A DNA stretch of 64,000 nucleotides from Bacillota bacterium (GTDB taxonomy: Bacteria; Bacillota; Clostridia; Christensenellales; UBA1242). Under the pieces are notes generated by a model. That model was not told where the DNA came from. It did not search any database and saw only the letters and a program-made list of their open reading frames with translations. Position 1 is the first letter of the stretch; each line of letters starts with the position of its first letter. The position numbers and the translations under genes were made by a program. The DNA is taken from the NCBI GenBank assembly GCA_009784375.1, contig WRBV01000001.1, positions 177,256-241,255 on the forward strand, given 5' to 3'. This document shows, in pieces, positions 1,034 to 43,700 of this stretch.

Positions 1034-2038
1034 ATGAAACAATATAAATCAATAGACCTCTTTGCAGGTATTGGTGGTATTCGTCTTGGCTTTGATAATG
1101 TGTTTAAAGAAGCTATAAAAACAGTATTTGTTAGTGAATGGGACAAGCCAGCACAGATAACATATAAGGCCAATTTTGGCGACCAACTAATATATGGGGA
1201 TATAACACAAATCAGCGAAGATTTAGTCCCATCGTTTGATATATGCCTGGCAGGTTTTCCATGCCAAGCATTTAGTCTTGCAGGGCAACGCAAAGGGTTT
1301 AAAGACAACTATAAAGATATATCTCGTGGGACATTGTTTTTTGATGTTGTGCGTATATGCCAAAAACACAAACCCAAGGTAATTTTTTGTGAAAATGTAA
1401 AAGGCCTTACAGTTCATGATAAAGGTAAAACTTTTTCTGTCATTATGGAGACATTAAAGCAACTTGGATATATGCCTTATGATAAAATTTTAAATAGTAA
1501 AGACTTTGGTGTTCCACAAAACCGAGAAAGAATCTATATAGTTGCTTTTAGAAATGATATAGATAGTTCATCGTTCCAATTTCCACAGCCAACAGATAAT
1601 ACAAAAAAAATTAAAGATATCTTAGAAAATCCACCAGTTCCTGCAAAATATTATTTAAGTGAGAAGTATATAGACACATTAAGAAAACATAAGGCAAGAC
1701 ACGAATCCAAAGGTAATGGATTTGGCTATGAAATTCGCGAATGGAATGGTATAGCAGGTGCTATTGTATGTGGTGGTATGGGTAGAGAGAGGAATCTTTT
1801 GATAGACACAAGACAGCAAAATTTAACTCCAACAACGAACATTAAAGGTAAGATTAATTCGGAAGGCATCCGCAAAATGACACCAAGAGAATGGGCAAGA
1901 TTACAAGGGTTTCCAGACACATTCAAATTTGAAGTAGCAGATGTACACCTTTATAAACAATTTGGTAACAGCGTAACTGTCCCCGTTATAGAAGCAATAG
2001 CAAAACAGATAAAGGTGGTGCTAGATGGCGGCAAATAG
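1034..2038 (+). CDS. hpaIIM: C5 DNA cytosine methyltransferase, M.HpaII-like (CCGG)
   Basis: Motifs DLFAGIGG, GFPCQAFS, ENV, QNRERIY and YKQFGNSV. The target-recognition region GNGFGYEI...GGMGRERNL...TPTTNIKG matches M.HpaII as I recall it. Confidence 0.9.
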   Translation: MKQYKSIDLFAGIGGIRLGFDNVFKEAIKTVFVSEWDKPAQITYKANFGDQLIYGDITQISEDLVPSFDICLAGFPCQAFSLAGQRKGFKDNYKDISRGTLFFDVVRICQKHKPKVIFCENVKGLTVHDKGKTFSVIMETLKQLGYMPYDKILNSKDFGVPQNRERIYIVAFRNDIDSSSFQFPQPTDNTKKIKDILENPPVPAKYYLSEKYIDTLRKHKARHESKGNGFGYEIREWNGIAGAIVCGGMGRERNLLIDTRQQNLTPTTNIKGKINSEGIRKMTPREWARLQGFPDTFKFEVADVHLYKQFGNSVTVPVIEAIAKQIKVVLDGGK

Positions 2039-3134
2039 AGGTGAATGGGCAGAGTTATATGTCATTTTTAAGTTGCTTGGCGATGGCAGGATATATTCTG
2101 CTGATGAAAATTTAGTAGCAAACCCACGATCTTATATTGATATTATTAAAATAATTCGTGAAGAAGTAAAAGATAAATTAATTGAATATAGAACTGGATC
2201 AATAGTGGATATTAATATTGATGGGCGAACAGTTGCTTCAATACCAGCATCAGATTTTTTATACAATGCAGAAAAACTTTTGCAAACAATAACTACTTCC
2301 AAGGGTCGCAGTTTTGATGTATTACCTGTCACAAAAGAATTTACAAAACGACTATTAATTAAAAGCTTCAAAGCGCCAAGTCGTGGATACTATGAAAACT
2401 TTGGTGGTAAGAATGATATCATAATGGAAATACGTGATCATGATAGGATGCAAATAGTTGCTGGGTTTTCAATAAAATCAAAATATAAAAACGCACCCAC
2501 GCTATTTAATGCGGCAAAAGCATCTGCTTTTACTTATGAACTTGAGGGTATTAATGATGAACAAATGGCAGAAATTAATTCCATAGTAACAGCAAAAGGT
2601 GGTAGGGACAAAAACGCAAGATTGGAATATATTAAAGCAAAAAATTTGGGATTTAATTTTTCTCATATCAAACATCGAACGTTTGAAGATAACATGGATA
2701 ATGTTCGCGGTGATATGCAGAAAATATTAAAAGCCATGCTTGAGATACATTATTTTAAGACAAAGAAAAACAGTAAGTTCACGGAAGTTACAGAGCACTT
2801 GATATCTGAAAACCCATTACAAAAACGCAATCCAGAGATTTTTTATACTAAAGCCATAAAAGATTTACTATGGGCATCATTTGCAGGTATGACGGCATCA
2901 GAGCAATGGAATGGTTTATCAACAGTTAACGGTGGGTATATCGTCGCAAAGGACAATGGTGAAGTTTTAGCCTATCATACACGAGACATGGAATCTTTCA
3001 GGACTTTTTTATTTAATCAAACAAAGTTTGACCGACCATCAGCGTCTGAGAGTAAATATGATTATGCACAAGTCTATAAAAAAGGTGATAAATATTTCTT
3101 TGATTTGAATTTTCAGATTAGATTCATTGACTAA
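2025..3134 (+). CDS. hpaIIR: HpaII-family type II restriction endonuclease
   Basis: N-terminus NRGEWAELYVIFKLLGDG, GFSIKS...PTLFNA, GGYIVAKDNGEVL and C-terminal LNFQIRF. Overlaps the methylase stop. Confidence 0.85.
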   Translation: MAANRGEWAELYVIFKLLGDGRIYSADENLVANPRSYIDIIKIIREEVKDKLIEYRTGSIVDINIDGRTVASIPASDFLYNAEKLLQTITTSKGRSFDVLPVTKEFTKRLLIKSFKAPSRGYYENFGGKNDIIMEIRDHDRMQIVAGFSIKSKYKNAPTLFNAAKASAFTYELEGINDEQMAEINSIVTAKGGRDKNARLEYIKAKNLGFNFSHIKHRTFEDNMDNVRGDMQKILKAMLEIHYFKTKKNSKFTEVTEHLISENPLQKRNPEIFYTKAIKDLLWASFAGMTASEQWNGLSTVNGGYIVAKDNGEVLAYHTRDMESFRTFLFNQTKFDRPSASESKYDYAQVYKKGDKYFFDLNFQIRFID

Positions 3135-4093: not shown

Positions 4094-4226
4094 TTAGATT
4101 TAAAAACTTATCTCCTTCGGTGTTGGACATTAAGGTTAAATTATTTAAAGTGTCCACTTGCGTGGACAGGTCATACACTAACTTAGCAGGACAAGGCTCT
4201 TGCGGTAGGCCGAGGAAAACTTAAGT

Positions 4227-4436
4227 ATGTGTAAAAAAACGATTACCAATCAAGCGGACATAACTATGCGTGTTTGTGGACAAGATGTTGTCATAAAAAG
4301 CAACAAAGTCACAACACGCATAAAAGACCATGATGATAAAGAATGTTGTTGTCATTGTGTATGCATATGTGTTTGCAGATGTTGGTGTTGTGAAATAAGA
4401 CGAATACTTGAATGTTTGTTTCCTTGCTTGCAATAA
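4227..4436 (+). CDS. Cys-rich small protein with an N-terminal DUF11 terminal hairpin (putative fibre anchor)
   Basis: TITNQADIT...SNKVTTRI followed by CCCHCVCICVCRCWCC. GAGG upstream; the stop is followed by the AGGAGG RBS of the next gene. Confidence 0.7.
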   Translation: MCKKTITNQADITMRVCGQDVVIKSNKVTTRIKDHDDKECCCHCVCICVCRCWCCEIRRILECLFPCLQ

Positions 4437-4448
4437 GGAGGAAAATAC

Positions 4449-4880
4449 ATGAAACTGGAAAACAAAGCATTTTTGGATTTGGAACTTTGTGGAGAAGCGG
4501 TGTCGGTTGACAGCGGAGAACCAACCGAAGTTGATATCATTGATTTGCAAATTACAAAAACAGCAAACTGTGCATATGCGATTTTGGGTGGCAATATTTG
4601 CTATACAGTCACAATTGTAAACAACAGCGATGTTGATTTCACAGACGGTGAAATGGGAGAAATTACATTCCGTGACCCACTTGCGGACAACCTTGAATAT
4701 GTTGATGATTCATTTGAATATGGAACAGACCCAGACAACCTTACGCCAGGCACCCCAAACATCGATGGCAACAACGTAATAACATTTGACCTTGCAATCC
4801 CAGCGGGCGAGACAATGTACATCGAGTTTTGTGCAAAGGTAACAGCAATGCCAACGGCGGCAGCCGCTGATGACGCGTAA
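4449..4880 (+). CDS. Circularly permuted DUF11-type (isopeptide) domain protein
   Basis: LQITKTAN...ICYTVTIVNNS...FRDPLADNLEYVDDSF...IPAGETMYIEF. Strong AGGAGG RBS, no signal peptide. Confidence 0.8.
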   Translation: MKLENKAFLDLELCGEAVSVDSGEPTEVDIIDLQITKTANCAYAILGGNICYTVTIVNNSDVDFTDGEMGEITFRDPLADNLEYVDDSFEYGTDPDNLTPGTPNIDGNNVITFDLAIPAGETMYIEFCAKVTAMPTAAAADDA

Positions 4881-4913
4881 GCTTTAGATTATTGCCACAG
4901 ATGGAGGTGAACC

Positions 4914-6383
4914 ATGCCTATTGTTTCGGGCGTGTTATATTACGATGGTAATAGAACAGCAGCCGCAGCAACGGCTACTGGAACTATAGCCAATGTACCA
5001 ATAGTTATGCAGAATACGGTAAATGGACTTGCAGCCGCAGTTCTAACAAGTTCAACAGGCACATTTCAATTCACAAATGTTCCATCAGGAAGTTACCAAG
5101 TGGTTGAATCATATGGATGGACCTATGATGATGGCACAACACCAATTACGATTGGGACCATTAATTGGGGTACAAATGCCGTGCCTTGTATGATGTTAAA
5201 AGGTGGAACTGTTCCACCTCTTGCTGATGATAGTCACACTTATGTGACTGTTTCGCCAACAAGTACAATAACAAATCTTGATTGTACTGTGCGTAATACT
5301 TGGCTTGAAACGGTTGGAGTATCCGACATTACAAATATTGCGATGTTAAATGGACCTGTGCGATATACACCACTTGTTCTTGCGTCTAATATTGTTGTTG
5401 ACTCACCGAACTTGGTAGTTGCGGCAGACAATGGAACCTTTGGATTATTTCCACCAGGAATAGTCGCAAACACAGGTGTGACGGTAACCGCGCCGCAAAC
5501 AAACCCTTATCCCGAGATTCAATCACAGTTCACCTATGTAATGGCGGCAACAGGAACATTACAACCAGTACCAGATGATGGACAATATACTGTGCAAAAT
5601 ATAATGAATAATAGCCACAGCAATTCTAATCCAACATCTCCTGCTTGGTGGCGTGTTGCCGACCATACGACTGGCAACGAAACTGGGCGAATGATGGTAA
5701 TAAATGGATATACACAAGGAACAATAATAGGACAGACAACTGTGCTGGTAAATGCGAACACATGTTACTTAACAAGTTATTGGGTTTTAAATTTATGCAG
5801 ACAAGCAACAGGCTATATAAACCCAGAATTCAGTCTTTTGGTCACCGACCAAGACGGAACAACAATCTATGAACATGATTTTACTGATGAAATATTACCC
5901 AACCCAGAATGTCCCGAATGGCGACAAATAGGCACAATATTCACAACGGCAAATGATACGACGGCAGTAACAATAAAATTCATAAGCCAAGGTGGGGCGG
6001 CAACAGGCAATGACTTTGTTTTAGATGACGTTGCACTAAACAGCGTAGATGTGCTTGAACTGGACATAACAAAAGATGCAAGTTGCTCTTATGCAACCAT
6101 TGGTGGGACCGTTTATTTTGGTATAACGATTTCAAATCCAACCAACTATCTGGCAACACAAATTACTTTAACGGATGAATTAGACGATATACTCGATGAG
6201 TTGAAATTTACACTTGATGGTCAAAACTGGTTACCATGGACGGGTACGCTTGATATTGATGACCTTGAACCTGGTGATTCTGGAGACATAATAATTCAAG
6301 GAAAAATCAAGTCTGGTGTTTCTGGAACAATTACTAATACAGCATCTGTGCAAGCCACATTTTGCGAGGAGGAAATAATATGA
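4914..6383 (+). CDS. Multidomain protein: SdrD-B/Cna-like N-domain, jelly-roll-like middle, C-terminal DUF11
   Basis: VSGVLYYDGNR...TSSTGTFQFTNVPSGSYQVVE; GNDFVLDDV; LDITK...LTDELDD...ITNTASV. GGAGGT RBS, no signal peptide. Confidence 0.8.
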   Translation: MPIVSGVLYYDGNRTAAAATATGTIANVPIVMQNTVNGLAAAVLTSSTGTFQFTNVPSGSYQVVESYGWTYDDGTTPITIGTINWGTNAVPCMMLKGGTVPPLADDSHTYVTVSPTSTITNLDCTVRNTWLETVGVSDITNIAMLNGPVRYTPLVLASNIVVDSPNLVVAADNGTFGLFPPGIVANTGVTVTAPQTNPYPEIQSQFTYVMAATGTLQPVPDDGQYTVQNIMNNSHSNSNPTSPAWWRVADHTTGNETGRMMVINGYTQGTIIGQTTVLVNANTCYLTSYWVLNLCRQATGYINPEFSLLVTDQDGTTIYEHDFTDEILPNPECPEWRQIGTIFTTANDTTAVTIKFISQGGAATGNDFVLDDVALNSVDVLELDITKDASCSYATIGGTVYFGITISNPTNYLATQITLTDELDDILDELKFTLDGQNWLPWTGTLDIDDLEPGDSGDIIIQGKIKSGVSGTITNTASVQATFCEEEII

Positions 6384-7048
6384 AAATTCAAAATATTGCA
6401 AGGCTTGGTGGTGATTTGGCGGGTTGTGATTGTGACGACATTCTGCAACGTATTACTTCTCTTGAAGAAGGTCAATGTGAACAATGTTGTGACTGTGATG
6501 CAATTTCACAAAGTCTGACTGAACTAAGAACCGACGTCACAACAATTCAAAATGACATAACCGAAATTCAGCAGAATATAACAACACTTGAACAATCCTT
6601 TAATGACCAAATAACCAACATCTTGAATGAGATCAGCAGGATAGAAAATTTTGTATTCTTGTCCGATGTGCGCACGTTTCCTACAACAAATAATCTTCTT
6701 AATGGGATAAGTGTTTCAACAATTAATGCAGGACATACATTTAATTTCTGGGGATCTGGATTTACTGTTGACAGCCCTACATTAAATAACAACACAGTTT
6801 ACTATATAATTGACCAATCAAGAACTGCATACCAAATACCAGAACTTCAATGGTACCAAGGCGATTCTACAATTGGTACATTATGGATAGAAATTCCAGG
6901 AGTCACCGCAGTCTACAGCTTTCCGCTTCGTTTCGATTCATCAGGTATTTATTTCAGAACAACTCAAGCGGTTAACAACATCGTTCCAGGTACATTATTC
7001 AAATTTACACAAGCGTTAATCCTGGTCGATCCAAGCACAGGCGGCTAA
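6380..7048 (+). CDS. Cys-rich coiled-coil protein with a C-terminal beta domain
   Basis: ATG 6380 after GAGGAGG, ATGA overlap with the upstream gene. CDC/CCDC motifs and heptads LTELRTDVTTIQNDITEIQQNITTLE. Confidence 0.75.
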   Translation: MKIQNIARLGGDLAGCDCDDILQRITSLEEGQCEQCCDCDAISQSLTELRTDVTTIQNDITEIQQNITTLEQSFNDQITNILNEISRIENFVFLSDVRTFPTTNNLLNGISVSTINAGHTFNFWGSGFTVDSPTLNNNTVYYIIDQSRTAYQIPELQWYQGDSTIGTLWIEIPGVTAVYSFPLRFDSSGIYFRTTQAVNNIVPGTLFKFTQALILVDPSTGG

Positions 7049-7062
7049 GGGGGAGGGTGGAT

Positions 7063-7395
7063 ATGGCACAATGTTACGGACCATTTAATTTTACAAGTAA
7101 CCAAGCACAGGTTGAAATTATTGACCTTGATATTACAAAGACAACATGTCCATATGCCCTTAAGGGTAGGGATATTTGTTACACGGTCATAGTATCAAAT
7201 AATAGTGATGTTGACATGTTTGGTATTTTGTTTAGCGATGAATTGGATGAAAACTTGACCTATGTCCCAGGCTCTTTCGAAGTTGATGGTGACCCACAAA
7301 CACCGATGATGTTTGAAAATATTATTCAATATCCACTAGATGTGCAAGCAGGTGGTTATATGACCATAAAATTCTGTGTAAAGATAAATATTTAA
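7063..7395 (+). CDS. Short permuted DUF11-type domain protein (paralogue of 4449-4880)
   Basis: SNQAQVEIIDLDITK...ICYTVIVSNNSDVD...FSDELDENLTYVPGSF. GGAGGG RBS; alternative GTG start at 7057. Confidence 0.8.
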   Translation: MAQCYGPFNFTSNQAQVEIIDLDITKTTCPYALKGRDICYTVIVSNNSDVDMFGILFSDELDENLTYVPGSFEVDGDPQTPMMFENIIQYPLDVQAGGYMTIKFCVKINI

Positions 7396-9931: not shown

Positions 9932-9957
9932 TCATTTGGACTGCCTAGAATAAAATG

Positions 9958-10533
9958 GTTGCCTGCACAAGGTTTGGGTCGGGTAAACTTTGCGACATAG
10001 GTCCAGTAGGATTTCCCTGTGTCTCACGATGCGTTGCCGCTACCGCTCTTTCGATTTAAGAAACACAACCCGTCGTTTCCGAACGGATGACTGGATTACC
10101 ACTAAGCCTGCACTTTAATCTCCAACCCAACGGCATATGAATGCCTCAGCCTAGAAGTTTTCCTTCGAGGAACACACATTGTTTTAAGTCTGTTTGCAGA
10201 TACAATTTCACTATCCAATTCCATACCGTTCCGTGTACTTTGGGTAGGCAGGATGACGATAGATCCGCTGGATCCACGCACAAGACGGGCTACTCTGCAT
10301 CGTGAATTCACACTATGCAGGGTTATTTGGCAATTGACTTGCCAAGCAGAGCGATGAGTGGGTCGGAAGATGTATGCCATTACACCGCGCCCAACCACCA
10401 TTATCCCCAGCACTCGCCCCCATTTGGGCAACGAAAGCAAACACCAGGAACCTCTTTATGTGCCTTATCGCGGTTTTAACCGCTTGAAACAATTATTGCG
10501 CTCGACTAGGATACTGCACCTTATACAAGCAAC
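9958..10533 (-). ncRNA. ole: OLE RNA (ornate, large, extremophilic RNA)
   Basis: Minus strand reads GGTGCAGTATCCTAGTC near the 5' end, GATTAAAGTG...TAGTGGTAATCCAGTC internally and GGGAAATCCTACTGGACCTATGTCGCAAAGTTTACC near the 3' end. Closing helix GTTGCTTGTATAAGGT/ACCTTGTGCAGGCAAC, about 576 nt, with oapA nearby. Confidence 0.9.
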
Positions 10534-10536
10534 AAT

Positions 10537-10565
10537 AGTATATGCTATTTTTGCCAAAATGTCTA
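10537..10565 (-). promoter_or_regulatory. Dedicated SigA-type promoter for ole
   Basis: TAGACA-17 bp-TATACT immediately upstream of the OLE closing helix. Confidence 0.65.
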
Positions 10566-26612: not shown

Positions 26613-29600
26613 ATGAGGAAAATTGCAATTGGTTTGTTTGCAATGGCGTTCGTTGTATCCGCTCTTTTCCTTGTGCCTATGCACACATCTGGCATAGTTA
26701 ACGCAGTTTATCGCGACACACCTTATCATTTTATTCCGCCGAATTCTGATCCATCGGGTACGGCTGGTCGTCGTGTATTCGGTGAAAACGGTGGAGAACC
26801 CCAGGCTTTTGTTTTGCAATCAAGATTTTTCGATGGTAACGATGATATTACGGGTGATACCGATGTTGTTCCGTTGCGTTCAATTTTTTCGGATGCCGAT
26901 ATGCAAAGAATTCAATATAGTGAAAATAATCTTCCGACCAATCGTGACATAATAAACACTCAAGATTTTGGAATGGTCATGCTTGATATGGATAACCCGA
27001 CTGCAACAGACAATTTTGTTGTATTGGAACTTTTAAATCTTAATGCTCTCAGCCTTGATATAAATGAAACTTGGTTCGATTTTCGTCCAGCAGACGGTGC
27101 AAGGGTTACCCGTAATGCAACAACACGCGAAAATCCAGCCGACCTAAGTACATACCATTTCATGGACAACAGCACCAATACTAACGCGACCAATGATTAT
27201 ATCCGTGATCTTGCAAGACAAAATCCAGGCAGACTTGTCCATAACAACAGATTCTCGATTGTTGGAATGTTCCAAGAAGAAGGTTATTACAGATTCCGTT
27301 TCCGTGTAACAAGCTTCAATTTCCCAGTATCACGAAGTCTTGTATTTGAATTTGCATTCTATATTGTACATTCAACCAACTATGAGGATTTTCCACATAT
27401 TCGTGGAGATGCGGTGACAAGACGTGGTGACAGTAACGTTTATTATTTTAACTTTATGGGTGAAAATCCATACCTTCTATATAATCCAGAACGTTTTACA
27501 ACAACTGTGCGTGCAACTAATTTCGCAGGACTTGATATTGGCGAAATAGAAAACAGGACATATGTCCCACTTAATCAACCGAATTTTGATGACATTGCAC
27601 AACTTGTGGATGATAATGGATATTGGTACGTCCATATGAATGGTAATAATTATCCAATAAACATAGATGACACAGTCCAAGAGCACGAGATTAAAGTCGA
27701 GATAATTCACGGTGCAGATGATTATTGGTGGATTTACGTAAATGGGGAATACATTGCAACAGGGATAGAAGTTGTTATCGGAAGGCATATGGAGTTCTAT
27801 ATGATAGGAAGCTATCGTGTGAACAGTTATATGGTCTTTTCATTCAATGGTGTAAGAATTCCTGTGTTGAATTTTACCGATTATAATTACATATTACATA
27901 TATTTGGTTTCCAAGCACATTACGAGGCATACGACGAAGTAACAGACACATTTACCACAAGTTGGTTTGGTTGTAATGAACGTGGTCTCAATGCAGATAT
28001 ATCTATGCGAGATGATTTGCCATCAGGTGCATTTGCAAATGACCAAGCGGGCGCCGATGCATTCAGAATCTCGATGGAGAATTGGGTAGATAATCAGAGA
28101 AGCGCATTGGGCGGGCATCGGGCGGTTGCAACCAACTCTGGACCTGTGCGACTTTTTGGAAATGCAACACTTGAACAGAACCAAGGTTTCCTTACTACAG
28201 TATCATTTAATAACGGTACTGAATGGAGAGAGTTGCCATTTACTCCTAACCGTCCATTTGAAACGGCGGGTGAGTACATTATAACAATGTATTACGTGTT
28301 CCCAGCAGCAACAAATAACATAAGAACAGTACTTCGTCAAGTTTTCCATTTTCGAATTATTAATACAATGGATATACGTGTCGCGCATTATCTTGACGGG
28401 ATACCAGGTGGAAATCTTCACGATGTTTATCATATAAATGACTTTGTTGGACAACGAATTCCAATATCTGGTTCATTCTTTGTATTTATGGATGGGATGG
28501 AATATTACCACGAAAGCGAACTGTCACCATTCATCATCAGACCTCGTGTTCAATTAACTGTGACCGATTTTGATGGAAATAACGCACGAACTATTCCAAA
28601 CTTTGAATTACATGATCTTCTTGCTCAATTTGAATTGCAAGAACGCCACGAAGAAGGTATATACACATTTAGTGTCTTTTTCGGTCGCAGAGGTGTGGCA
28701 GTAACACACTTTACAATAGTAGTAGATAACAGCCCAATTCATGATTTCCGAATTGTTAACCACGGTGGGACGGAATTAATACCGACAAATGCACCAGATA
28801 ATTTTGCAATATGGGGTTCGGGAACTGATGAGGATTTCTTTGTTGAATTGCATTGGGGTATTAAACCAAGTGGAATAGGATTTACAACAGCCGAAGTCCA
28901 AGTATATACATTTGACAGAGACGAGAATTTTTCACAATCAGATAACTTTAACAATGCCAATATGTTGTCGCCATTTGTAATGAATACAACACCATCGATT
29001 TTAAATTTCAGAGTATTAGAGGTGCGTAATCCACAAGGCATACTAACAGGTTTCCGAATTGCTGAACGTTTTACGGGTTCGGGTATTTATATCTTTCGTG
29101 TGACTGATGCCGCTATGAATGTAAGTACCTTTGTTCTTGTAATAGATAATACACAGTCCGCATTTGCACAAGACCCACTTGTTGACGAGGAACACATAAT
29201 CAACATGGTAACAGACAGGAATGGAGCAAATGTTGGTTTTGGTCTTAACAAGATAATCGAGGCTGACCTTGGAACCATTATCTTGGAAGAGGGCGAAAAT
29301 GGCGCAAGTGATATAACATTATTAAACAAGTTAACAGGCACAAATTTGATTAATTCAGATGGACTTGTAATTCCTATCCAAAAGATTGAAATGGCGACCG
29401 ATATGGGTAACGGAAGATTTAACAGGATTTTCGAAAGATTACCAAACAACACAATATATGGAAGCAATACGATACATCTTGTCGATGAAAATTTTTACAC
29501 ATTCAGAATCCATGACCATTTTGGTAATGTTACAGAATACTATGTGTTTTTAAACTTTGACCGAAGTCGTGGTGCAATCTTAGAGGACTCGGTTGCAAAT

Positions 29601-32600
29601 ATAGGATTGGACATTGGTCCAGGCTCTATGCAAATCTCGTCAACCGCGAGCATAGTTCGCCCAGGCGGAATTTCTAACCGCAATTTTGTTGCATTTTCAT
29701 TCTTGCAAAAGCAATATACTGCTGGTGACTTTATTGACGAATTTGTGGTAGACAAAGTTGAATTCACTTTCTTTCCAAAGACATGGCAAAGATTTTATTA
29801 CCAGCCGTCGACAACACAGGGTGAAAGTGGAACATGGTTGCCAAATCCAAATTATCCATTTGCAAGTGAACCAACCGTAATAAACGAAGTAATTTATCAA
29901 AGAACGGGTGATGTTTTAGAAGGATTACAAGTAGTTCCAGTAAGTGTAGGCGAGAGTACCAACACACGTGCAGTCTCAGGGATGTACATGATAACCCGTC
30001 ATTTTGACGAAACTACGGTACCCACAGAATATGCAGACGAAATCATTAAAAACCATTTTTTTATCGTTGACAACAACTCTATCATTGCACCAACAGACGT
30101 ATTTGACACAGACATTCGAATAGACTTTGGTAATAAAACAGCAACTGTGGAAGATTTCCAAAGACAAAACAATCGCAATATGCAAGTCGGACGCGACCTT
30201 GTCATCCAAACAAATATGAATGCAACCGTACGAATGCCATTGTTTGGAACAAAGTATGGACATGCTGCAATCGACCCAAATGGTCACAGCCATGACCTTG
30301 GTTCACATGTCATGAATATTCCACATAAGGTGTTCTGTGACACAGCGAATGATTTCATTATAACACCAAACTTTGCTTTTAATTCACTCCGATTAAATCT
30401 AGAGGTTCAACAATCGACCGACGGCGGGACAAGTTTTGAAACACTATTTGACAGAACAGAAGCAAATACACATGTTCCAATCACCCATGCAGGAATTTAC
30501 AGACTTGTATTCACAGATGGAAGTGGCGGTATGCGTGTCCAACAATTCGGTATGGGCGAGCGTGTAGTTGAACCAAACAGAAGTGAAATATTATTTGAAA
30601 GAACAGGCGATGGAAGCAACGGCTCGTTCTTCCGAAATGGACGAAGAATATCTCTTCGTTCGACTCAACTTGATGCGGGCGATATTGTGACATTCTCGTA
30701 CATGGTGTCTGATCCACATACATTCTTTGCAGACATTCACAGTTCACATGTTACCGCGACTATTGGTGGGGTGATTACTTCTGCTAATCTTAATGTTGAG
30801 GATACAAGGCAAGGCACTACGTTGACTCGTACATACATGATGCCAAATAATCTTCTTTTGGTGGAAGGCAATAGATTTAACATTACTCTTAACACAGTTG
30901 GCAACATAATCCCAGCACTACAATTCGAGCTAACAGTTGATAACACACCACCAAATCACAATATACAAAGCCTTCGAGAACTTGACCATCTTTGGAGAAA
31001 TGTTGCATTCTCGGGTGGGCTTGATGAAGACACATTTGTATTCTCTGTATCGTATGACTTTATATTTTCACGTCCTATAGCAAATCCGCATCTTGATACA
31101 TTTGCAATTTCTTTATTCGAAGTTTATCAATCACTTTCTCCAAAAGGCGGGGAATATGACTTTACTTATAATTATTTCCTTCCATATATATCAGGCAGCC
31201 AAGTATATCTAGGTCCACGTCCTTTCCGTGAAATTGTAAATTTGCAGCCAAATGATAACAGATTCTTCCGAATAGTCGAACGTGACGAAGCGGGTAACAC
31301 AAGACAATATTTTGTAAATATACGTGGTCAAGCCCATGTTGACGAGATAGAGGCATCTATGGCCAGGTCTTTCAACACGGTAAACGCAAATATTATCCAA
31401 GATACTGGGGCGGCTATATTTGGTACGAACATTTCGATTACAGACACAGAAGAATTCTGGTTAGCAAATCCATTTTTTGAAATATCAACAGGTACACACA
31501 CATTCCGGAGATTTAATAACACGGTATCATTTGGTCCAAGGGCAACATTACAGACCGAAAACAATGCAACTCCATTAATGTTGCAAGAAGAATTAAATAG
31601 ATGGCTTCGTGCAACACCCCAGGGACAAATCCAACTTGTTGTTAATAATGGTTTTAGTACGTGGGTTACAAATATATTCCAAATTGACAATGCTGCTGTG
31701 TTACCGCAAATCACGGCGACTGCGACCGAGACTGGTGCTTTGATTATACGTGTTGTAAATTGGCAAGCACTTCCGCAGATATTCCGTGACAATGCAAATA
31801 TGTTACGACTTGTTGTTACTGATGTTGATATGAGTCATGAAGTTCTATGGAACGCAAATTTCCATGGTATGAATGATGCTGCTGGCTGGCAAATCACGGT
31901 CACAGCATCAGGCGAACCTATTGCGGCACGTGAAGCGTTAATTGTTGTGACTGACCTTTTTGGACGTGAAGTAAGAATTGAACATAACGGAAGACATGGA
32001 AACCATCGTGACTTTATCATGCACGGTGAAACAAGAGAAATAAATAATGCGCGTTTCACAGGGGACGAGCGTGGTGTGAATATAGAATTTACAAGACCTG
32101 TGCACAATGTTCAAATATACAGAGACGGAGTCGAAGTCGCATCAGTCATAAATGGTGTCACAAGGATAGATGCTGCAATAAATAACATAAGCACACGAAA
32201 TGATGGCATCATCGGTCATTTTAATATTACTCCGCCGACTGATACAGAAGAATCAAGATGGCGTGTAGTAATCGTACAAATCCAAAGCGGACGCACAGCA
32301 CTTGATCAAGAATTCGTATTCTATACAAGAATAGCAAATGTCCGATTTACAAACCTGAGTGGTGAGGCTATTGATGAAATAGTTCCATTTGGAGATGCCG
32401 AAGATGTATCACTTAACGGAATGGTTCAAATACAAATTTCTCATGGAGAGAGCCGTTTCACTTCATCAATAACAGTCTTCCGTACATTCTGGGACCCAAC
32501 TGAAGAAGAATTCAGAACCGAACGTCAAACAGTACGAAGCGGAGTTTCACGTTTTAACCTTACCCAAATCGGAACCTATGAAATAGTGGTAATGAACACA

Positions 32601-34385
32601 GTATGGGCAAGACAAGTATTCAGATTTATAATAGCCGACGTTGACAACACAACATACAGAGTATTCTTTAACTATGAACACGATACACGCCCAGAGGAAC
32701 AAGGCGAACAACTTCGCCGCAGTCCAGTAATGTTTAACTTTGAAAGAAATGGACACCCAACAAGACGAATACCACAATACTTTGTCCGTGGCACAAATGC
32801 ACAGGTCAACGCGGTTTCTACAACATCAAATAATCTGCCGCTTGAAATAGAACTCAGCCTGAATTATCCAAGAGAAATCGTAGGGAATGCACCAATCCAT
32901 TTTGAAGACAATATTGCCTTTGGTGGAAATAACGTTCGAACATTTATTTACGAACTTCGTTCAACATTAACGGCAACAAGTATGTACATAGCAATTACAG
33001 CAATTCCACAAAACCTTGATAGGATAAGTAACGTATCAATTATTGCACCACCGACTGGGGGAGGCAACATACGACAGGAAAATACTATACTACATGCACT
33101 TTACACAACTATAGGTGTAAATGGATTAAATGTTTCTGTAGACACGAGTATTGTAGGCGCACATAACTCGCACTCTGGAAACGTCATTTTCGTTGATTAT
33201 TACTATAATGGAACTTTTGCTGGGACATTCCTTGCGACCGAAACACTTACGATTCATGCACGCAACTATGGAAAATTTGAATTATTTATCCGTGACGTTG
33301 CGGGTTACAGAAGAAGCTTTTCTCAAACAGACATCCAAGGAAACACGCGTAATACAGACCACTTTACGTTATACAACCTTGCAAGACCGCCTCTTCTTGT
33401 AAATGGCGAGATTGTAATGGATGGGATGGTATATAACAACGAATTGAACCTTGAATTTATGTACTTTGAACATGGAACACAAAATGGTGTAGGGATGTTC
33501 GTCGAAAGCATCCAGGTCTGGCGTAATGGTGTAGAGCTAACAGAAACATTTACCCAAAGACAAAGCGGAGAACCACCATTCTTTACATCGCAACAAACGG
33601 CGGGTGGTCCACATTTCTGGCACTCACGTAACGAATGGATGTTCACAGAACCAGGTGCCTATACATTTGATATAAGGTTCAGGTACGTTGCAGGTGTTGT
33701 TCTTTCACAAAGATTTTCTGTCCAACTTGTGGATGCATCGATTGTTCCTGTTACATGGCTTGAGAGTTTCGCATTTATTCCATCAAACAACACAGAAATT
33801 GAAACAATATTACGTAATGGTGTGGATATAACAAGAACCTTTACAAATGCCCAGCTTGCAAGTTTGCGTCTTGATTCACGAACTTCGGTTGGACACTATG
33901 AGATTACGGTACGCATACACGACAACATAAGACCAAGCTTTACAAAAGAATTCGAGGTTTTCATCAATATGCGTCACAATGGAACTGGATTGATAAATAA
34001 TACTATTGGATGGGGAACAACAACAACGGGTTCTGCGACGATATATTTCATACCAGGACAAATTCGATTATTTTTCCCCAATGCAACCTTTATGATTTTC
34101 CGAGACGGCAGCCCAGTAACACTTGCTTATAGAAATAATCTACCATTAACTTCTATTAACATAGCAGAAGAAACAAGAGACTATATATTCTTGCCATTCA
34201 ACGCAGATGGACGATACAGAGTAGAATTACGAACGCACACAGGAGAAGTAATCTTCAGCGATGGTTTTGAAATTACGACTGGACTAAGTGCTCTTGCTGT
34301 GATTATTATTGTTGCTCTTGTTGGGATTGTATTGGTTGGTGCGGTATTATTCTTTGTAATGAGAAACCGAATGAAGGTTAAATAA
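26613..34385 (+). CDS. Giant cell-surface protein (2590 aa) with tandem Ig-like modules
   Basis: Signal peptide; recurring GxYxxxxxDxAGN / IDNT motifs; C-terminal TM plus RNRMKVK tail. Terminator at 34391-34415. Confidence 0.85.
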   Translation: MRKIAIGLFAMAFVVSALFLVPMHTSGIVNAVYRDTPYHFIPPNSDPSGTAGRRVFGENGGEPQAFVLQSRFFDGNDDITGDTDVVPLRSIFSDADMQRIQYSENNLPTNRDIINTQDFGMVMLDMDNPTATDNFVVLELLNLNALSLDINETWFDFRPADGARVTRNATTRENPADLSTYHFMDNSTNTNATNDYIRDLARQNPGRLVHNNRFSIVGMFQEEGYYRFRFRVTSFNFPVSRSLVFEFAFYIVHSTNYEDFPHIRGDAVTRRGDSNVYYFNFMGENPYLLYNPERFTTTVRATNFAGLDIGEIENRTYVPLNQPNFDDIAQLVDDNGYWYVHMNGNNYPINIDDTVQEHEIKVEIIHGADDYWWIYVNGEYIATGIEVVIGRHMEFYMIGSYRVNSYMVFSFNGVRIPVLNFTDYNYILHIFGFQAHYEAYDEVTDTFTTSWFGCNERGLNADISMRDDLPSGAFANDQAGADAFRISMENWVDNQRSALGGHRAVATNSGPVRLFGNATLEQNQGFLTTVSFNNGTEWRELPFTPNRPFETAGEYIITMYYVFPAATNNIRTVLRQVFHFRIINTMDIRVAHYLDGIPGGNLHDVYHINDFVGQRIPISGSFFVFMDGMEYYHESELSPFIIRPRVQLTVTDFDGNNARTIPNFELHDLLAQFELQERHEEGIYTFSVFFGRRGVAVTHFTIVVDNSPIHDFRIVNHGGTELIPTNAPDNFAIWGSGTDEDFFVELHWGIKPSGIGFTTAEVQVYTFDRDENFSQSDNFNNANMLSPFVMNTTPSILNFRVLEVRNPQGILTGFRIAERFTGSGIYIFRVTDAAMNVSTFVLVIDNTQSAFAQDPLVDEEHIINMVTDRNGANVGFGLNKIIEADLGTIILEEGENGASDITLLNKLTGTNLINSDGLVIPIQKIEMATDMGNGRFNRIFERLPNNTIYGSNTIHLVDENFYTFRIHDHFGNVTEYYVFLNFDRSRGAILEDSVANIGLDIGPGSMQISSTASIVRPGGISNRNFVAFSFLQKQYTAGDFIDEFVVDKVEFTFFPKTWQRFYYQPSTTQGESGTWLPNPNYPFASEPTVINEVIYQRTGDVLEGLQVVPVSVGESTNTRAVSGMYMITRHFDETTVPTEYADEIIKNHFFIVDNNSIIAPTDVFDTDIRIDFGNKTATVEDFQRQNNRNMQVGRDLVIQTNMNATVRMPLFGTKYGHAAIDPNGHSHDLGSHVMNIPHKVFCDTANDFIITPNFAFNSLRLNLEVQQSTDGGTSFETLFDRTEANTHVPITHAGIYRLVFTDGSGGMRVQQFGMGERVVEPNRSEILFERTGDGSNGSFFRNGRRISLRSTQLDAGDIVTFSYMVSDPHTFFADIHSSHVTATIGGVITSANLNVEDTRQGTTLTRTYMMPNNLLLVEGNRFNITLNTVGNIIPALQFELTVDNTPPNHNIQSLRELDHLWRNVAFSGGLDEDTFVFSVSYDFIFSRPIANPHLDTFAISLFEVYQSLSPKGGEYDFTYNYFLPYISGSQVYLGPRPFREIVNLQPNDNRFFRIVERDEAGNTRQYFVNIRGQAHVDEIEASMARSFNTVNANIIQDTGAAIFGTNISITDTEEFWLANPFFEISTGTHTFRRFNNTVSFGPRATLQTENNATPLMLQEELNRWLRATPQGQIQLVVNNGFSTWVTNIFQIDNAAVLPQITATATETGALIIRVVNWQALPQIFRDNANMLRLVVTDVDMSHEVLWNANFHGMNDAAGWQITVTASGEPIAAREALIVVTDLFGREVRIEHNGRHGNHRDFIMHGETREINNARFTGDERGVNIEFTRPVHNVQIYRDGVEVASVINGVTRIDAAINNISTRNDGIIGHFNITPPTDTEESRWRVVIVQIQSGRTALDQEFVFYTRIANVRFTNLSGEAIDEIVPFGDAEDVSLNGMVQIQISHGESRFTSSITVFRTFWDPTEEEFRTERQTVRSGVSRFNLTQIGTYEIVVMNTVWARQVFRFIIADVDNTTYRVFFNYEHDTRPEEQGEQLRRSPVMFNFERNGHPTRRIPQYFVRGTNAQVNAVSTTSNNLPLEIELSLNYPREIVGNAPIHFEDNIAFGGNNVRTFIYELRSTLTATSMYIAITAIPQNLDRISNVSIIAPPTGGGNIRQENTILHALYTTIGVNGLNVSVDTSIVGAHNSHSGNVIFVDYYYNGTFAGTFLATETLTIHARNYGKFELFIRDVAGYRRSFSQTDIQGNTRNTDHFTLYNLARPPLLVNGEIVMDGMVYNNELNLEFMYFEHGTQNGVGMFVESIQVWRNGVELTETFTQRQSGEPPFFTSQQTAGGPHFWHSRNEWMFTEPGAYTFDIRFRYVAGVVLSQRFSVQLVDASIVPVTWLESFAFIPSNNTEIETILRNGVDITRTFTNAQLASLRLDSRTSVGHYEITVRIHDNIRPSFTKEFEVFINMRHNGTGLINNTIGWGTTTTGSATIYFIPGQIRLFFPNATFMIFRDGSPVTLAYRNNLPLTSINIAEETRDYIFLPFNADGRYRVELRTHTGEVIFSDGFEITTGLSALAVIIIVALVGIVLVGAVLFFVMRNRMKVK

Positions 34386-40755: not shown

Positions 40756-43700
40756 TTGGGGGACAAAAGAAATTTGAGCAAAAGAAATAAAATAATCCTC
40801 GGAGCAATGGTGGGACTTGTACTCATAGGTGTCCTTGCCATTATTTTGTCGACCACGGGCGGTGGTAATGCCGCACAAATGCGAATTAGTGCAAACACAA
40901 CAAATGTCAATATAACAATGCAGATGTCGGTCCAAAACAATCAAATAGTCCCACCAGCAATAGCACAAAGATTCCAGGATGTTATCGTTACAGTATCACG
41001 TGCGCCAAGTGAAATAGGAAGTGGTGTACATGCATATTCGCTTGACCAAAATGTTGCAACGGCATGGGTAGAAGCCCGAAGCGGGGATAGAAACTGGGTT
41101 CGTATTGTCGGTCAAGGTGCAGGTCAAACAAGAATACGTGTTATGAGCCACGGTGGGCAAAGAACAATGTACATAAATGTTCGTGTTGATGTGCCTGCCC
41201 AAGACTTTGTTGTTCGTGACCCAAGGTTTGGGGTTATACATAATCAGATTGCGCCAAATTCTATCGAATTTGTCGAGAGCGATTTTAATTTCTTTGCAAC
41301 AACTAATCATAACTTTGATGTAGCAACAAGCATCAATACAATCGACTTTTCATTTGCCCCAGGTACAGAAACCCACGGCACCCGTATAGATGGAAACCGA
41401 TTTATTGTATATCCTGGATCAACAATCGGAGTTGTCCAAGTACGTGCAACATTGCGACGTAATACGGCAATAACGCGTGACTTCCCAGTCCACATATTCC
41501 CATCAACTTCATTTGGTGATTTGGGTCTTCGTGATATGACAGGGTCCCAGATTTCAAATTCGGGTCTTGTAATTGCACCACTTGTTCTTAACAATACGCT
41601 TGCTGCTCCTAATTTTATTGATTATGATTTGACCATAGCAAACATACCAATCTCGAACACAAGAAATATTGCATATGGTAACCTTACATACAGGTACCAG
41701 TTAATTAATCATAATGAAAATATAACTTATGTTTTGGAAGAGACGCCTGACCAATTTCGAGTAATGGGGAAGACACCTGGACATACGTATGTAGATGTAA
41801 TGGTTTTCCCAGTATTACAAGTCGGGGCAAATACAATCTTTTTTAACAGAACACAAGATTCTCATCTTCAAAGAACGCGAAGAATAAGGGTTGAAGTCCG
41901 TAATACATTCCGTGATGATCAATTAAGATTTACCGAAGATAATGACATCAACAATGAGTTCGATGATATATATGCATTCTTTGCAATTGGACGTAATGAC
42001 AGATTTAATTTCAATGTTACAATGACAGATGATGTTATGGTCAACAATACACCATCACATCCTTTGAATAACAGAGTTACATTTGATATTATTAATTCGC
42101 CAATACCTGTTCCTTCGACACAGATTGGTACGTTTTTTAATATTACATATTCACCTACTGCGGCACGTGAGCCTAATGCAACTACTACAATGATTTCGCC
42201 GCATTTTACCAATGGTGTGCCATATAATTCATACTTCTCGATTTCCTTTGTTTCTAACCCAGGCTTTGCAGGCGGTGATCCAAGTATAATTAGCCAGTTT
42301 ATGGCGGCATCAAGTGATTTAATCCCAGAACAAGACCGATTAATGCTTGAAGTACGAAGTATTGCAATGCGTGCAGATGGTGAAACTCCACTTGCATCAA
42401 AGCGAATACCTTTGCGGGTTATACGCTCGGTCACCGAGATGCATGCCGAGAACTCAGCGGGAGACATAATAACAACATTGTTCCCAGTACGTAACGGAGT
42501 ATCAAATCCATTTGATTTCTATGTTGCGACCGACCTTGGTGATGATGCGGTGGCAAATCGTTTTTCATGGACATTATCACAAAATGCACGAACACCATAC
42601 GGTGAATTATTCAACATAACTCGTGAACCAGCGACAGTCGGGGGAAGACTTGGTTTTTCAATTGCGGTGAATCCAACCATTGCCGATGACGTGCGAATTG
42701 GTGTGGAGTATTACATAGATATAAGATATATAAGTGGTTACACAATTCGATTGCCTATACTTGTTCAAGAAAGACTTGAATCCTATACGTATGATGTCAT
42801 TGGTCTAAGTGGTAATGCACAAATTTTCGAACCGCGCAATACTACACGATTGTCTGGCGGTGTTAATTTGTTCTTGCGAATTGATGGAACATATTCATTA
42901 AATATTAATGCAATGCCAACACATGCAAGTGTATTCGCATCAATGATTCCATCAAGCACAAGCATTATTGTTTGCAATACAACATTTACTTTCCGACCAA
43001 CAGAGGAAGGTCAATTCACAATTAATGTTTCACTTGGTTCTGTTAACCCAGACGTTTTAATTGGAATTGATCGAGACTTTGTAATTAATATCACGGTAAT
43101 TAATCCGATTATGCGGGCTGATTTTTCTCATAATTGGGAAAGAATTTATTCGGTCAATACATTGTCACATTTCGCAAGTCCTTTGGTAGAGGGAAGTTTC
43201 CTTGATTTCACACTTGACTTTGAATTTGCTGGTGGAGGAAACACAAGCTCGACTATTAATATCACTACAAGTTATACAAGCCCAAATATAAGGTTAGAAC
43301 AACTTGGATGGAATTCGTTCCGAGTACATGGACTATGGGATACGGGTGAAGATATTTTCGATACAATATCATTCGAAATTGAACAAACATTCCATGGTTA
43401 CACAAGGTCGTTTACATTCGGAAGCCCACGTGTATTTCATCTTAACGTCCGAGAAGTTGAAATGATTCAAAGCATTCACCTTCGTAACGTTGGTGAAACA
43501 TTGAACATGACGCTTAACGCACAGGGTACTCAATCTATGACTGTGCTTACAACACCATATCCTATCGAAGGTGTGCATAATCTTGATATTGGATTTGCGT
43601 TCTTGGTTGGTGGAACTATATTCAATCCAAACGGTACACTTATCCAAAATATCCCTGGTATCGTTTCTGTGAACAATGCTGGTCAAATCACAGCAATACA

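Follow-up and report, generated by a model that had tools for sequence, protein, structure and literature searches.

DUF11, renamed CLIPPER, is a domain typical of secreted fibrillar adhesins, and its crystal structure (PDB 9IFR) is a CnaA-like immunoglobulin (Ig) domain in which an intramolecular isopeptide bond joins Lys715 to Asn806 under catalysis by Asp748 (passages of PMC12617251). Here, we describe five small genes at positions 4227-7395 of a 64,000-nucleotide stretch of DNA (hereafter the window; contig WRBV01000001.1) from a bacterium of the Bacillota, across which the parts of a CLIPPER domain are distributed. On balance, we favour the reading that these genes encode a donor-strand fibre of split CLIPPER subunits, which would be locked by isopeptide bonds and would probably stand on the spore. 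The host genome (G000) comprises 1.08 Mb in 12 contigs, uses the standard code and is 85% complete, a completeness that all genome-wide negatives below carry with them.

The assembly logic has precedents, as the combination of donor-strand exchange with a spontaneous intermolecular isopeptide bond has already been reported twice. BsaA of Clostridium perfringens, a member of the TasA family, inserts an N-terminal segment into the sheet of its neighbor and locks it by an acid-catalysed Asn-Lys bond; it differs from the proteins described here in fold and family, in its secretion through Sec and SipW and in its place in the biofilm matrix (passages of PMC11580942). The archaeal thread of Sulfolobus acidocaldarius likewise combines donor-strand complementation with intersubunit isopeptide bonds, but it is archaeal, secreted and glycosylated, and no sequence relation to it was found (PMC9715654). 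Covalently self-cross-linking spore fibres are also already known: A-ENA is an alpha-helical spore-fibre family that was characterised experimentally in Bacillus thuringiensis (passages of PMC13111695).

With the CLIPPER adhesins (PF01345), the cluster shares the domain family, as judged by hidden Markov model and fold, the Lys, Asp and Asn residue types and a similar spacing. In the adhesins, the triad lies within one chain and the domains form tandem stalks of secreted proteins (passages of PMC12617251), whereas here the Asn hairpin sits on another polypeptide, small proteins without signal peptides are involved, and the bond is predicted to be intermolecular. What appears to be new is thus a CLIPPER domain split between chains, its two-strand donor, the set of donor-only, half-donor and acceptor-only parts, and the setting. 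The original prediction, made from the DNA letters, had not recognised the locus as a described system. This stands for the split CLIPPER fibre, as a full-text literature search yielded no report of a DUF11/CLIPPER fibre that is split or intermolecular (the search covered main texts; related proteins might be included in the supplements of PMC13111695 and PMC12617251), and it does not hold for the class of mechanism, in view of BsaA and the archaeal threads. Split or intermolecular forms are unmentioned in the searched passages of the CLIPPER survey (PMC12617251).

Distribution of CLIPPER domain parts among the cluster proteins

The 143-amino-acid (aa) protein matches DUF11 in Pfam (27.4 bits) and TIGR01451 in NCBIfam (36.9 bits), in both cases above the cut-off (24.6 and 24 bits, respectively). 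The 489-aa protein matches DUF11 with 42.2 bits, and the 112-aa protein falls under the Pfam cut-off (22.4 bits) and over that of NCBIfam (TIGR01451, 34.6 bits). Scans of both libraries gave no convincing family match for the 69-aa and 222-aa proteins. An AlphaFold2 (AF2) monomer model of the 143-aa protein, built on an 11-sequence alignment, comprises a confident seven-strand core (residues 30-133) and leaves residues 1-29 unplaced, with a predicted local distance difference test value (pLDDT) below 50. The top Foldseek matches of this core are CnaA-like sortase-pilin domains and 9ifr, the latter with a template modelling (TM) score on the target of 0.57, 21% identity and a probability of 1.00, with every E-value above 0.001. 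When solved structures were searched by sequence, the CLIPPER domain of the 489-aa protein and the profile of the 143-aa family both returned chance-level matches only; the link of the 143-aa protein to 9ifr is thus one of fold search, not of sequence search. The spacing from Lys to Asp is 39 in the 143-aa protein versus 33 in 9IFR. Together, the family and fold matches bear out the original assignment to a DUF11/Cna-type isopeptide domain.

How the pieces relate to a complete domain can be read from the tandem protein P0185, in which a core is followed by a short Pro-rich linker, the Asn strand, a loop, the second strand and then the Lys-bearing first strand of the next domain. The 143-aa family profile aligns across this tandem-domain junction. 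In effect, the 143-aa protein is a P0185-type unit cut in the linker: it consists of the Asn strand, the loop, the second strand and its own core, and it stops after the last core strand. Its hairpin ends about one residue before the first core strand, as at the tandem-domain junction. Judged from these alignments, the N-terminal hairpin of the 143-aa protein is the terminal hairpin of a preceding domain.

The other cluster proteins are cut at different points of the same unit. Similar to the 143-aa core, that of the 112-aa protein has the Lys and the Asp and no Asn hairpin after the last core strand; the 112-aa protein opens at the Cys of the hairpin turn, so that only the second strand precedes its core. 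In the 489-aa protein, the CLIPPER domain retains an Asn strand of its own and ends at the turn Cys, and this protein is the only one in the cluster with the triad in one domain of one chain. An Asn-x8-Cys pattern is common to the hairpins of the 143-, 69- and 489-aa proteins, and the 222-aa family has Asn-x10-Cys.

Two further hairpin-first CLIPPER proteins are encoded elsewhere in the host genome. In one, of 406 aa (G000:C1:71138-72358), hairpin and core are preceded by a large N-terminal domain; the other, of 244 aa (G000:C2:20679-21413), continues from its hairpin and core into a stretch rich in Cys, then a Pro linker and finally a C-terminal beta domain. Both proteins may belong to the same system, as additional parts or as alternative tips.

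Model of the putative 143-aa polymer

Three copies of the 143-aa protein were modelled together with ESMFold2 and a custom alignment, which gave a median ipSAE of 0.62 (runs of 0.62, 0.67 and 0.43). In controls with three unrelated proteins as partner, the best value was 0.00. In the calibration, 20 of 30 proteins that had been solved as pairs attained this ipSAE mark, compared with 1 of 23 that had been solved as single chains; these counts apply only roughly to a custom alignment and three copies. At least 75% of the contacts are common to the runs, and the partner pLDDT is at least 81.

In this model, donor residues 1-33 contact residues 31-56, 72-82 and 131-135 of the acceptor. The low-error residue pairs join Ala7 to Lys37 and to Asp76, and the interface includes Asn5 and Cys14 on the donor side and Cys41 on the acceptor side. 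The model supports an insertion of the N-terminal segment in trans into the core of the next subunit, in line with the strand complementation between 143-aa copies that had been predicted.

Proposed assembly

In the assembly that we propose, 143-aa subunits would polymerise head to tail, each donating its N-terminal hairpin into the core of the next. Donor Asn5 would be brought beside acceptor Lys37 and Asp76, where an intermolecular isopeptide bond would form spontaneously, and a disulfide between Cys14 and Cys41 would probably link the subunits as well. The free acceptor end of the shaft would be occupied by donor-only parts, namely the 69-aa peptide and probably the 222-aa protein. The free donor end would enter the 112-aa protein, which would take up the full hairpin, and the half hairpin of the latter would complete the 489-aa protein, which as an acceptor-only part would end the chain. 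The resulting order would be 489 <- 112 <- (143)n <- 69; as a donor cap, the 222-aa protein could replace or supplement the 69-aa peptide.

The 69-aa peptide might thus serve as cap, nucleator or anchor. The polarity of such a fibre could take either direction: the Cys-rich tail of the 69-aa peptide could form cross-links to a coat or exosporium that is itself rich in Cys, and the 222-aa knob or the 489-aa jelly roll could equally bind the spore or a target.

Conservation of the cluster and of its key residues

The same five genes occur in the same order in the window, in the congeneric genome G003 (proteins of 63, 145, 454, 175 and 110 aa) and in the metagenome loci L013, L019 and L025; loci L024 and L026 repeat the G003 sequence. 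In these recurring gene sets, relatives of the 143-aa protein show 45-60% identity. Because related genomes and metagenome contigs carry the split architecture in intact genes, the cluster is not a broken gene, in keeping with the original prediction. Variant sets are found in genome G002, with proteins of 144, 238 and 89 aa that correspond to the shaft, a coiled-coil protein and a Cys-rich peptide, and in genome G001 (126, 469 and 183 aa). In other loci, the 222-aa gene is the most constantly linked partner, and a Cys-rich hairpin peptide adjoins the 143-aa relative in 13 of 20 metagenome loci, several of the remaining ones being short contigs. The 143-aa query matches 6 of 24 genomes of the host family, including three of the four in the same genus; scans of named genomes with the protein query and the family alignment returned no relative.

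In one metagenome locus, a 115-aa gene that encodes only a truncated CLIPPER domain (L018:2440-2787) takes the place of the 489-aa gene. The large head is therefore dispensable for the cluster.

Residue conservation was counted over 20 distinct relatives of the 143-aa protein. The residues of the predicted triad are widely kept (Asn5 in 19, Lys37 and Asp76 in 18 each), as the original prediction had implied, and the same holds for Cys14 (20/20), Cys41 (19/20), Cys51 and Cys128 (18/20 each). Lys37 and Asp76 are missing jointly, in the same two relatives, and therefore behave as a catalytic pair would. The losses of Cys51 and Cys128 likewise coincide, in two of the 20 sequences, as would suit a disulfide that joins two strands within the domain. 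In the 112-aa family (n = 9), the Lys and the Asp are invariant and the N-terminal Cys is present in eight members, and an Asn-x8-Cys strand is missing from all nine. The close orthologues of the 489-aa protein (up to 505 aa; n = 18) all end at the hairpin Cys plus 2-12 variable, mostly acidic residues.

Peptides of the 69-aa type that lie beside 143-aa relatives (n = 14) contain 8-20 Cys each and carry Asn at the donor position in 12 cases, Ser in one and Thr in one. The Ser- and Thr-type peptides (L017:880-1086 and L025:5718-5939) could be non-covalent caps or rely on other cross-link chemistry.

A further pair of genes is present in genome G006. A 143-aa relative without Lys37, Asp76, Cys51 and Cys128 and a Cys-rich, collagen-like protein of 113 aa with GxY repeats are encoded side by side on opposite strands (L012:1170-1511, plus strand, and L012:1555-1992, minus strand). 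The composition of the 113-aa protein is typical of exosporium proteins.

Layout of the cluster and its surroundings

The five genes are closely packed on the plus strand (Table 1), each preceded by a purine-rich ribosome-binding site, and the ATG of the 222-aa gene overlaps the stop codon of the 489-aa gene (ATGA). All four open reading frames (ORFs) of the original prediction, and the peptides quoted from them, are present letter for letter. The count of four genes was too low, as the 222-aa gene, whose trimeric-fibre-like product has an Asn-bearing N-terminal strand of its own, had been overlooked. For the 112-aa protein, the ATG at 7063 (110 aa) is the more likely start, because it matches the start in G003 and has a better ribosome-binding-site spacing.

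Table 1. Positions of the promoter box and the five genes in the window.
Feature	Position	Strand	Description
-10-like promoter box CATACACTA	4172..4180	+	SigE/SigK mother-cell type, 55 nt 5' of the first gene
69-aa donor-only peptide	4227..4436	+	N-terminal Asn hairpin (Asn8, Cys17), Cys-rich tail; 14 Cys in the whole peptide
143-aa shaft subunit (putative)	4449..4880	+	Donor hairpin (Asn5, Cys14); CLIPPER core (Lys37, Asp76, Cys41, Cys51, Cys128) without its own C-terminal Asn hairpin
489-aa acceptor-only terminal protein (putative)	4914..6383	+	SdrD_B-like domain, jelly-roll-like module, CLIPPER domain ending at the hairpin-turn Cys
222-aa protein	6380..7048	+	N-terminal Asn strand (Asn5, then CDC motif), long coiled coil, C-terminal beta head
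112-aa adaptor (putative)	7057..7395	+	N-terminal Cys and second hairpin strand alone; CLIPPER core with Lys and Asp, without Asn strand

None of the five proteins has a hydrophobic N-terminus: the maximum 12-residue hydropathy within the first 35 residues is at most 1.33, versus 3.18 for a neighboring lipoprotein that served as positive control. Transmembrane-like segments are also absent, with 19-residue hydropathy never above 1.42, and a search of the host genome for the sortase family PF04203 found none. The proposed lack of signal peptides and sortase is thus upheld. The usual setting of CLIPPER domains is not found here, as there is one such domain per protein and no signal peptide, and no sortase was found in the 85%-complete genome; on the same grounds, the cluster does not match sortase-assembled pili, which have a signal peptide, an LPXTG-type sorting signal and a pilus sortase.

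The cluster is flanked by a restriction enzyme gene and the lipoprotein gene in the window and, in G003, by a metK-like gene (identified by reading its translation). The restriction enzyme is an HpaII-type endonuclease (Pfam E-value 3.7e-76), whose gene is overlapped on its upstream side by a 334-aa ORF; the two lie within 1034-3134, just 5' of the cluster. The window also contains two giant ORFs of 2590 and 3708 aa (26613-34385 and 40756-51882), which do not encode DUF11 proteins, as all four matches of a genome-wide PF01345 search lie elsewhere. A full-length OLE (ornate large extremophilic) RNA is encoded at 9953-10538 on the minus strand (299 bits versus a gathering score of 50), in a genome of no more than about 1.1-1.3 Mb.

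The 222-aa and 489-aa proteins

In the AF2 model of the 222-aa protein, a disordered start (residues 1-16) leads into a long helix (18-91), which is followed by a beta head (98-214). In Foldseek, the head resembles the trimeric receptor-binding heads of the lactococcal phages TP901-1 and p2, with TP901-1 as the best match (E-value 6.9e-6), as well as reovirus sigmaC and adenovirus knobs. Of 17 short family members counted in the alignment, 16 keep the N-terminal Asn strand and the CDC start, and the stalk varies in length among homologues, one of which has a collagen repeat in its place. The stalk-and-head plan is shared with the BclA-like tip and anchor fibres of endospore appendages (PMC12357932). 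In the ~305-aa homologues P0278, P0279 and P0281, the N-terminal Asn strand and Cys motif are swapped for a beta-rich domain of ~110 aa, and stalk and head are kept.

The 489-aa protein begins with a domain that weakly matches SdrD_B/prealbumin-like domains in Pfam, followed by a middle module with structural similarity to jelly rolls of the carbohydrate-binding module (CBM) or DUF642 type, a lead taken from the Atlas. Its homologues are abundant in Clostridia, including Clostridioides difficile, Paraclostridium sordellii, Clostridium botulinum and Terrisporobacter, among others, and those inspected start without a signal peptide. Many homologues of ~690 aa (E-values 1e-80 to 1e-95) carry a C-terminal helical domain, PF26595, which the Atlas names A_ENA. 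In the characterised A-ENA family, some fusion proteins bear SdrD_B (PF17210) and PF01345 passenger domains (passages of PMC13111695). Thus, the 489-aa head appears to be fused to the A-ENA domain in other lineages and to be attached here through the split CLIPPER domain. Collagen-repeat forms occur among the homologues of both the 222-aa and the 489-aa protein.

Sporulation genes and the promoter region

The host genome encodes Spo0A and SpoIVA, both above the curated cut-offs, and SpoIVA is found in 23 of the 24 other genomes of the host family. The genomes of this family span ~0.7-1.3 Mb, many being 90-100% complete, and may be among the smallest that keep endospore genes.

Mother-cell promoters of C. 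difficile have -10 boxes of the types CATATTAT and CATATAAT, and SigK promoters carry an AC at -35 (passages of PMC3789822). A SigE/SigK-like box near 4172 had been predicted, and CATACACT is indeed located at 4172-4179. The strict CATAC motif is present in 6 of 17 upstream regions; with the looser CATAnnnT[AG], adopted afterwards, a box lies within 100 nt 5' of the first cluster gene in 14 of 16 loci, compared with 80 of 905 background ORFs (all of at least 150 aa, from the host genome). In most loci, an AC lies 14-17 nt 5' of the box, as seen by eye. Because the proteins lack signal peptides and the box is of the SigK/SigE type, we infer assembly in the mother cell; the fibre is most likely made there and ends as an endospore appendage on the spore surface.

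In the window, a perfect 6-bp inverted repeat (GTCCAC, 4 nt, GTGGAC; 4151-4170) abuts the -10-like box, at the position that a -35 element or an operator would occupy. It was not seen in the other loci inspected.

Weighing the fibre against other explanations

Several points count against an isopeptide-locked spore fibre. The evidence is computational throughout, so that the fibre and its bonds are predictions from sequences and models. The complex model covers the homotypic 143-aa case, and the 69-143, 143-112 and 112-489 pairings follow from sequence logic; its score is the model's own confidence, with one of the three runs at 0.43. The donor position is occupied by Ser or Thr in two of the 14 Cys-rich peptides and by Gly in one of the 20 143-aa relatives, and the isopeptide bond would therefore be common in the family, not universal. 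The 222-aa protein is predicted to be a trimer, and how its three donor strands would fit a single-file fibre is puzzling. As for the spore, the SigE-like and SigK-like proteins of the host (297 and 249 bits) both score slightly below their curated cut-offs, and small acid-soluble spore proteins (PF00269) were not found in its genome. The CATAnnnT[AG] motif was picked after viewing the sequences, and the loci are related, so that a binomial figure for the 14 of 16 loci overstates the enrichment; in the window, moreover, the AC sits just 14 nt 5' of the box. The PF26595 assignment in the homologues of the 489-aa protein comes from precomputed Pfam lists.

A rival reading concerns the fold of the small proteins, which could be permuted and yet self-contained, the hairpin folding back in cis, the isopeptide bond being intramolecular and the proteins acting as monomeric Cys-rich components of the coat or exosporium. 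The Atlas monomer model of the 143-aa protein (pTM 0.70) aligns with DUF11 proteins from residue 1, and donor-strand subunits elsewhere have often been modelled or crystallised in self-complemented form, as in the closed conformation of TafA (PMC11821415). The AF2 monomer, by comparison, leaves residues 1-29 unplaced at pLDDT below 50, although it is merely unconfident at this end, and the trimer model sets the hairpin in trans (0.62 versus 0.00 for the controls). The gap of about one residue between hairpin and core, like that of a tandem-domain junction, also speaks against folding in cis, which moreover leaves the conserved donor-only 69-aa peptide, the half-donor 112-aa protein and the turn-truncated 489-aa acceptor unexplained. 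A self-complemented 143-aa monomer, as final state or as precursor, is possible on the models, but as an account of the whole set we regard the cis fold as unlikely. Lower still is our estimate for a donor-strand fibre held by strand insertion and disulfides alone. Cys14 and Cys41, conserved in 20 and 19 of 20 relatives, both lie in the modelled interface, members without the Asn or without Lys and Asp persist, and a BsaA mutant, N35A, still gives oligomers stable in sodium dodecyl sulfate (passages of PMC11580942). Against this, the triad residues are each kept in 18-19 of 20 relatives with joint loss of Lys and Asp, and for the parent domain family an isopeptide bond has been established by structure determination (passages of PMC12617251).

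The place of the fibre and the integrity of the locus raise separate doubts. The similarity of the 222-aa head to lactococcal phage receptor-binding heads (E-value 6.9e-6) and the prevalence of DUF11 in secreted fibrillar adhesins (passages of PMC12617251) would suit a phage-derived or cell-surface adhesin set that is released by lysis or exported by another route. We consider such a non-spore origin improbable: the flanking genes are non-phage and differ between genomes, signal peptides are absent, the promoter box belongs to the mother-cell type, and fusions to an endospore-appendage domain occur among the homologues of the 489-aa protein. The pieces do resemble a tandem DUF11 protein cut at its domain linkers, as they would if the locus were a fragmented multi-domain gene, whether pseudogene or assembly artefact. 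However, the same cuts are found as intact ORFs in several genomes and contigs (143-aa relatives at 45-60% identity), each gene has its own ribosome-binding site, with one start-stop overlap, and the 18 close 489-aa orthologues are all truncated alike. Given this recurrence of the split genes in intact form, fragmentation was rejected and is scarcely credible.

Implications and comparison with known systems

Beyond the favoured reading of an isopeptide-locked spore fibre, we tentatively propose that the cluster adds a fifth structural class to the endospore appendages and provides the first split CLIPPER polymer of natural origin, formed without secretion system, chaperone, usher or sortase in spore-formers of ~1 Mb. 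Its parts would be donor-only caps (the Cys-rich peptide and the knobbed, trimeric fibre), an adaptor with half a donor and an acceptor-only terminus. If so, evolution would have turned a widespread intramolecular cross-link domain into a self-ligating polymer unit, and a new fold would be added both to covalently locked donor-strand fibres and to the types of endospore appendage. This would also account for many small DUF11 proteins without signal peptide in Bacillota, of which the Atlas lists several clusters of about 126-300 aa. Furthermore, it suggests that distinct spore fibre scaffolds (alpha-helical A-ENA, collagen stalks and split CLIPPER) display the same SdrD_B plus jelly-roll passenger, and it would provide tag-and-catcher-like parts of natural origin, possibly with mutual specificity, for the roles of initiator, extender, adaptor and terminator.

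The endospore appendages (ENAs) described to date, S/L-ENA (DUF3992), F-ENA (DUF4183) and A-ENA (alpha-helical, with intermolecular isopeptide bonds), are signal-less fibres of the sporulating cell with an N-terminal connector or hook, as proposed here. They also share with the cluster Cys- or isopeptide-based cross-links and dedicated anchor and tip proteins of the stalk-and-head type (PMC12357932 and passages of PMC13111695), and they differ from it in subunit fold. The five proteins gave no DUF3992 or DUF4183 match in a Pfam scan run at E-values up to 1, whose library did not include the PF26595 model, and no TasA-family match in the Pfam and NCBIfam scans. The corresponding families PF13157 and PF13799 were not found in the host genome, although PF13157 also went unmatched in all 14 control genomes. 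Membership in F-ENA, S/L-ENA or the TasA family was rejected on the basis of these scans and genome searches. In F-ENA, DUF11 is present only as a spacer in the F-Anchor-3 protein (PMC12357932).

The gene cluster of the ribbon-like spore appendage of Clostridium taeniosporum offers another parallel, with DUF11 in four of nine proteins, proteins of ~140 aa, collagen-like proteins and putative late mother-cell promoters (PMC5749712). No assembly mechanism is described for this appendage, and the likeness is drawn from the description, not from sequences.

The division of labor proposed for the cluster is that of chaperone-usher pili (type 1 and P), which combine an acceptor-only tip with an extra domain, an adaptor, a rod of donor/acceptor subunits and a terminator, and in which the N-terminal extension of a neighbor completes the Ig-like fold (PMC11821415). 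That source, the tafi paper, was set aside as a precedent for DUF11, as it concerns DUF1102. In these pili, a single strand is donated rather than a two-strand hairpin, and the cluster has no chaperone, usher or periplasm and a predicted covalent lock. In SpyTag/SpyCatcher, a domain of the CnaA/CnaB type has been split into a reactive strand and a core that react in trans, yielding man-made two-part pairs. Another engineered split isopeptide domain, RrgA Jo.In (PDB 5mkc), is itself among the Foldseek matches of the 143-aa core. Compared with these engineered pairs, the cluster would be a natural set of parts that forms a head-to-tail polymer and is equipped with its own caps.

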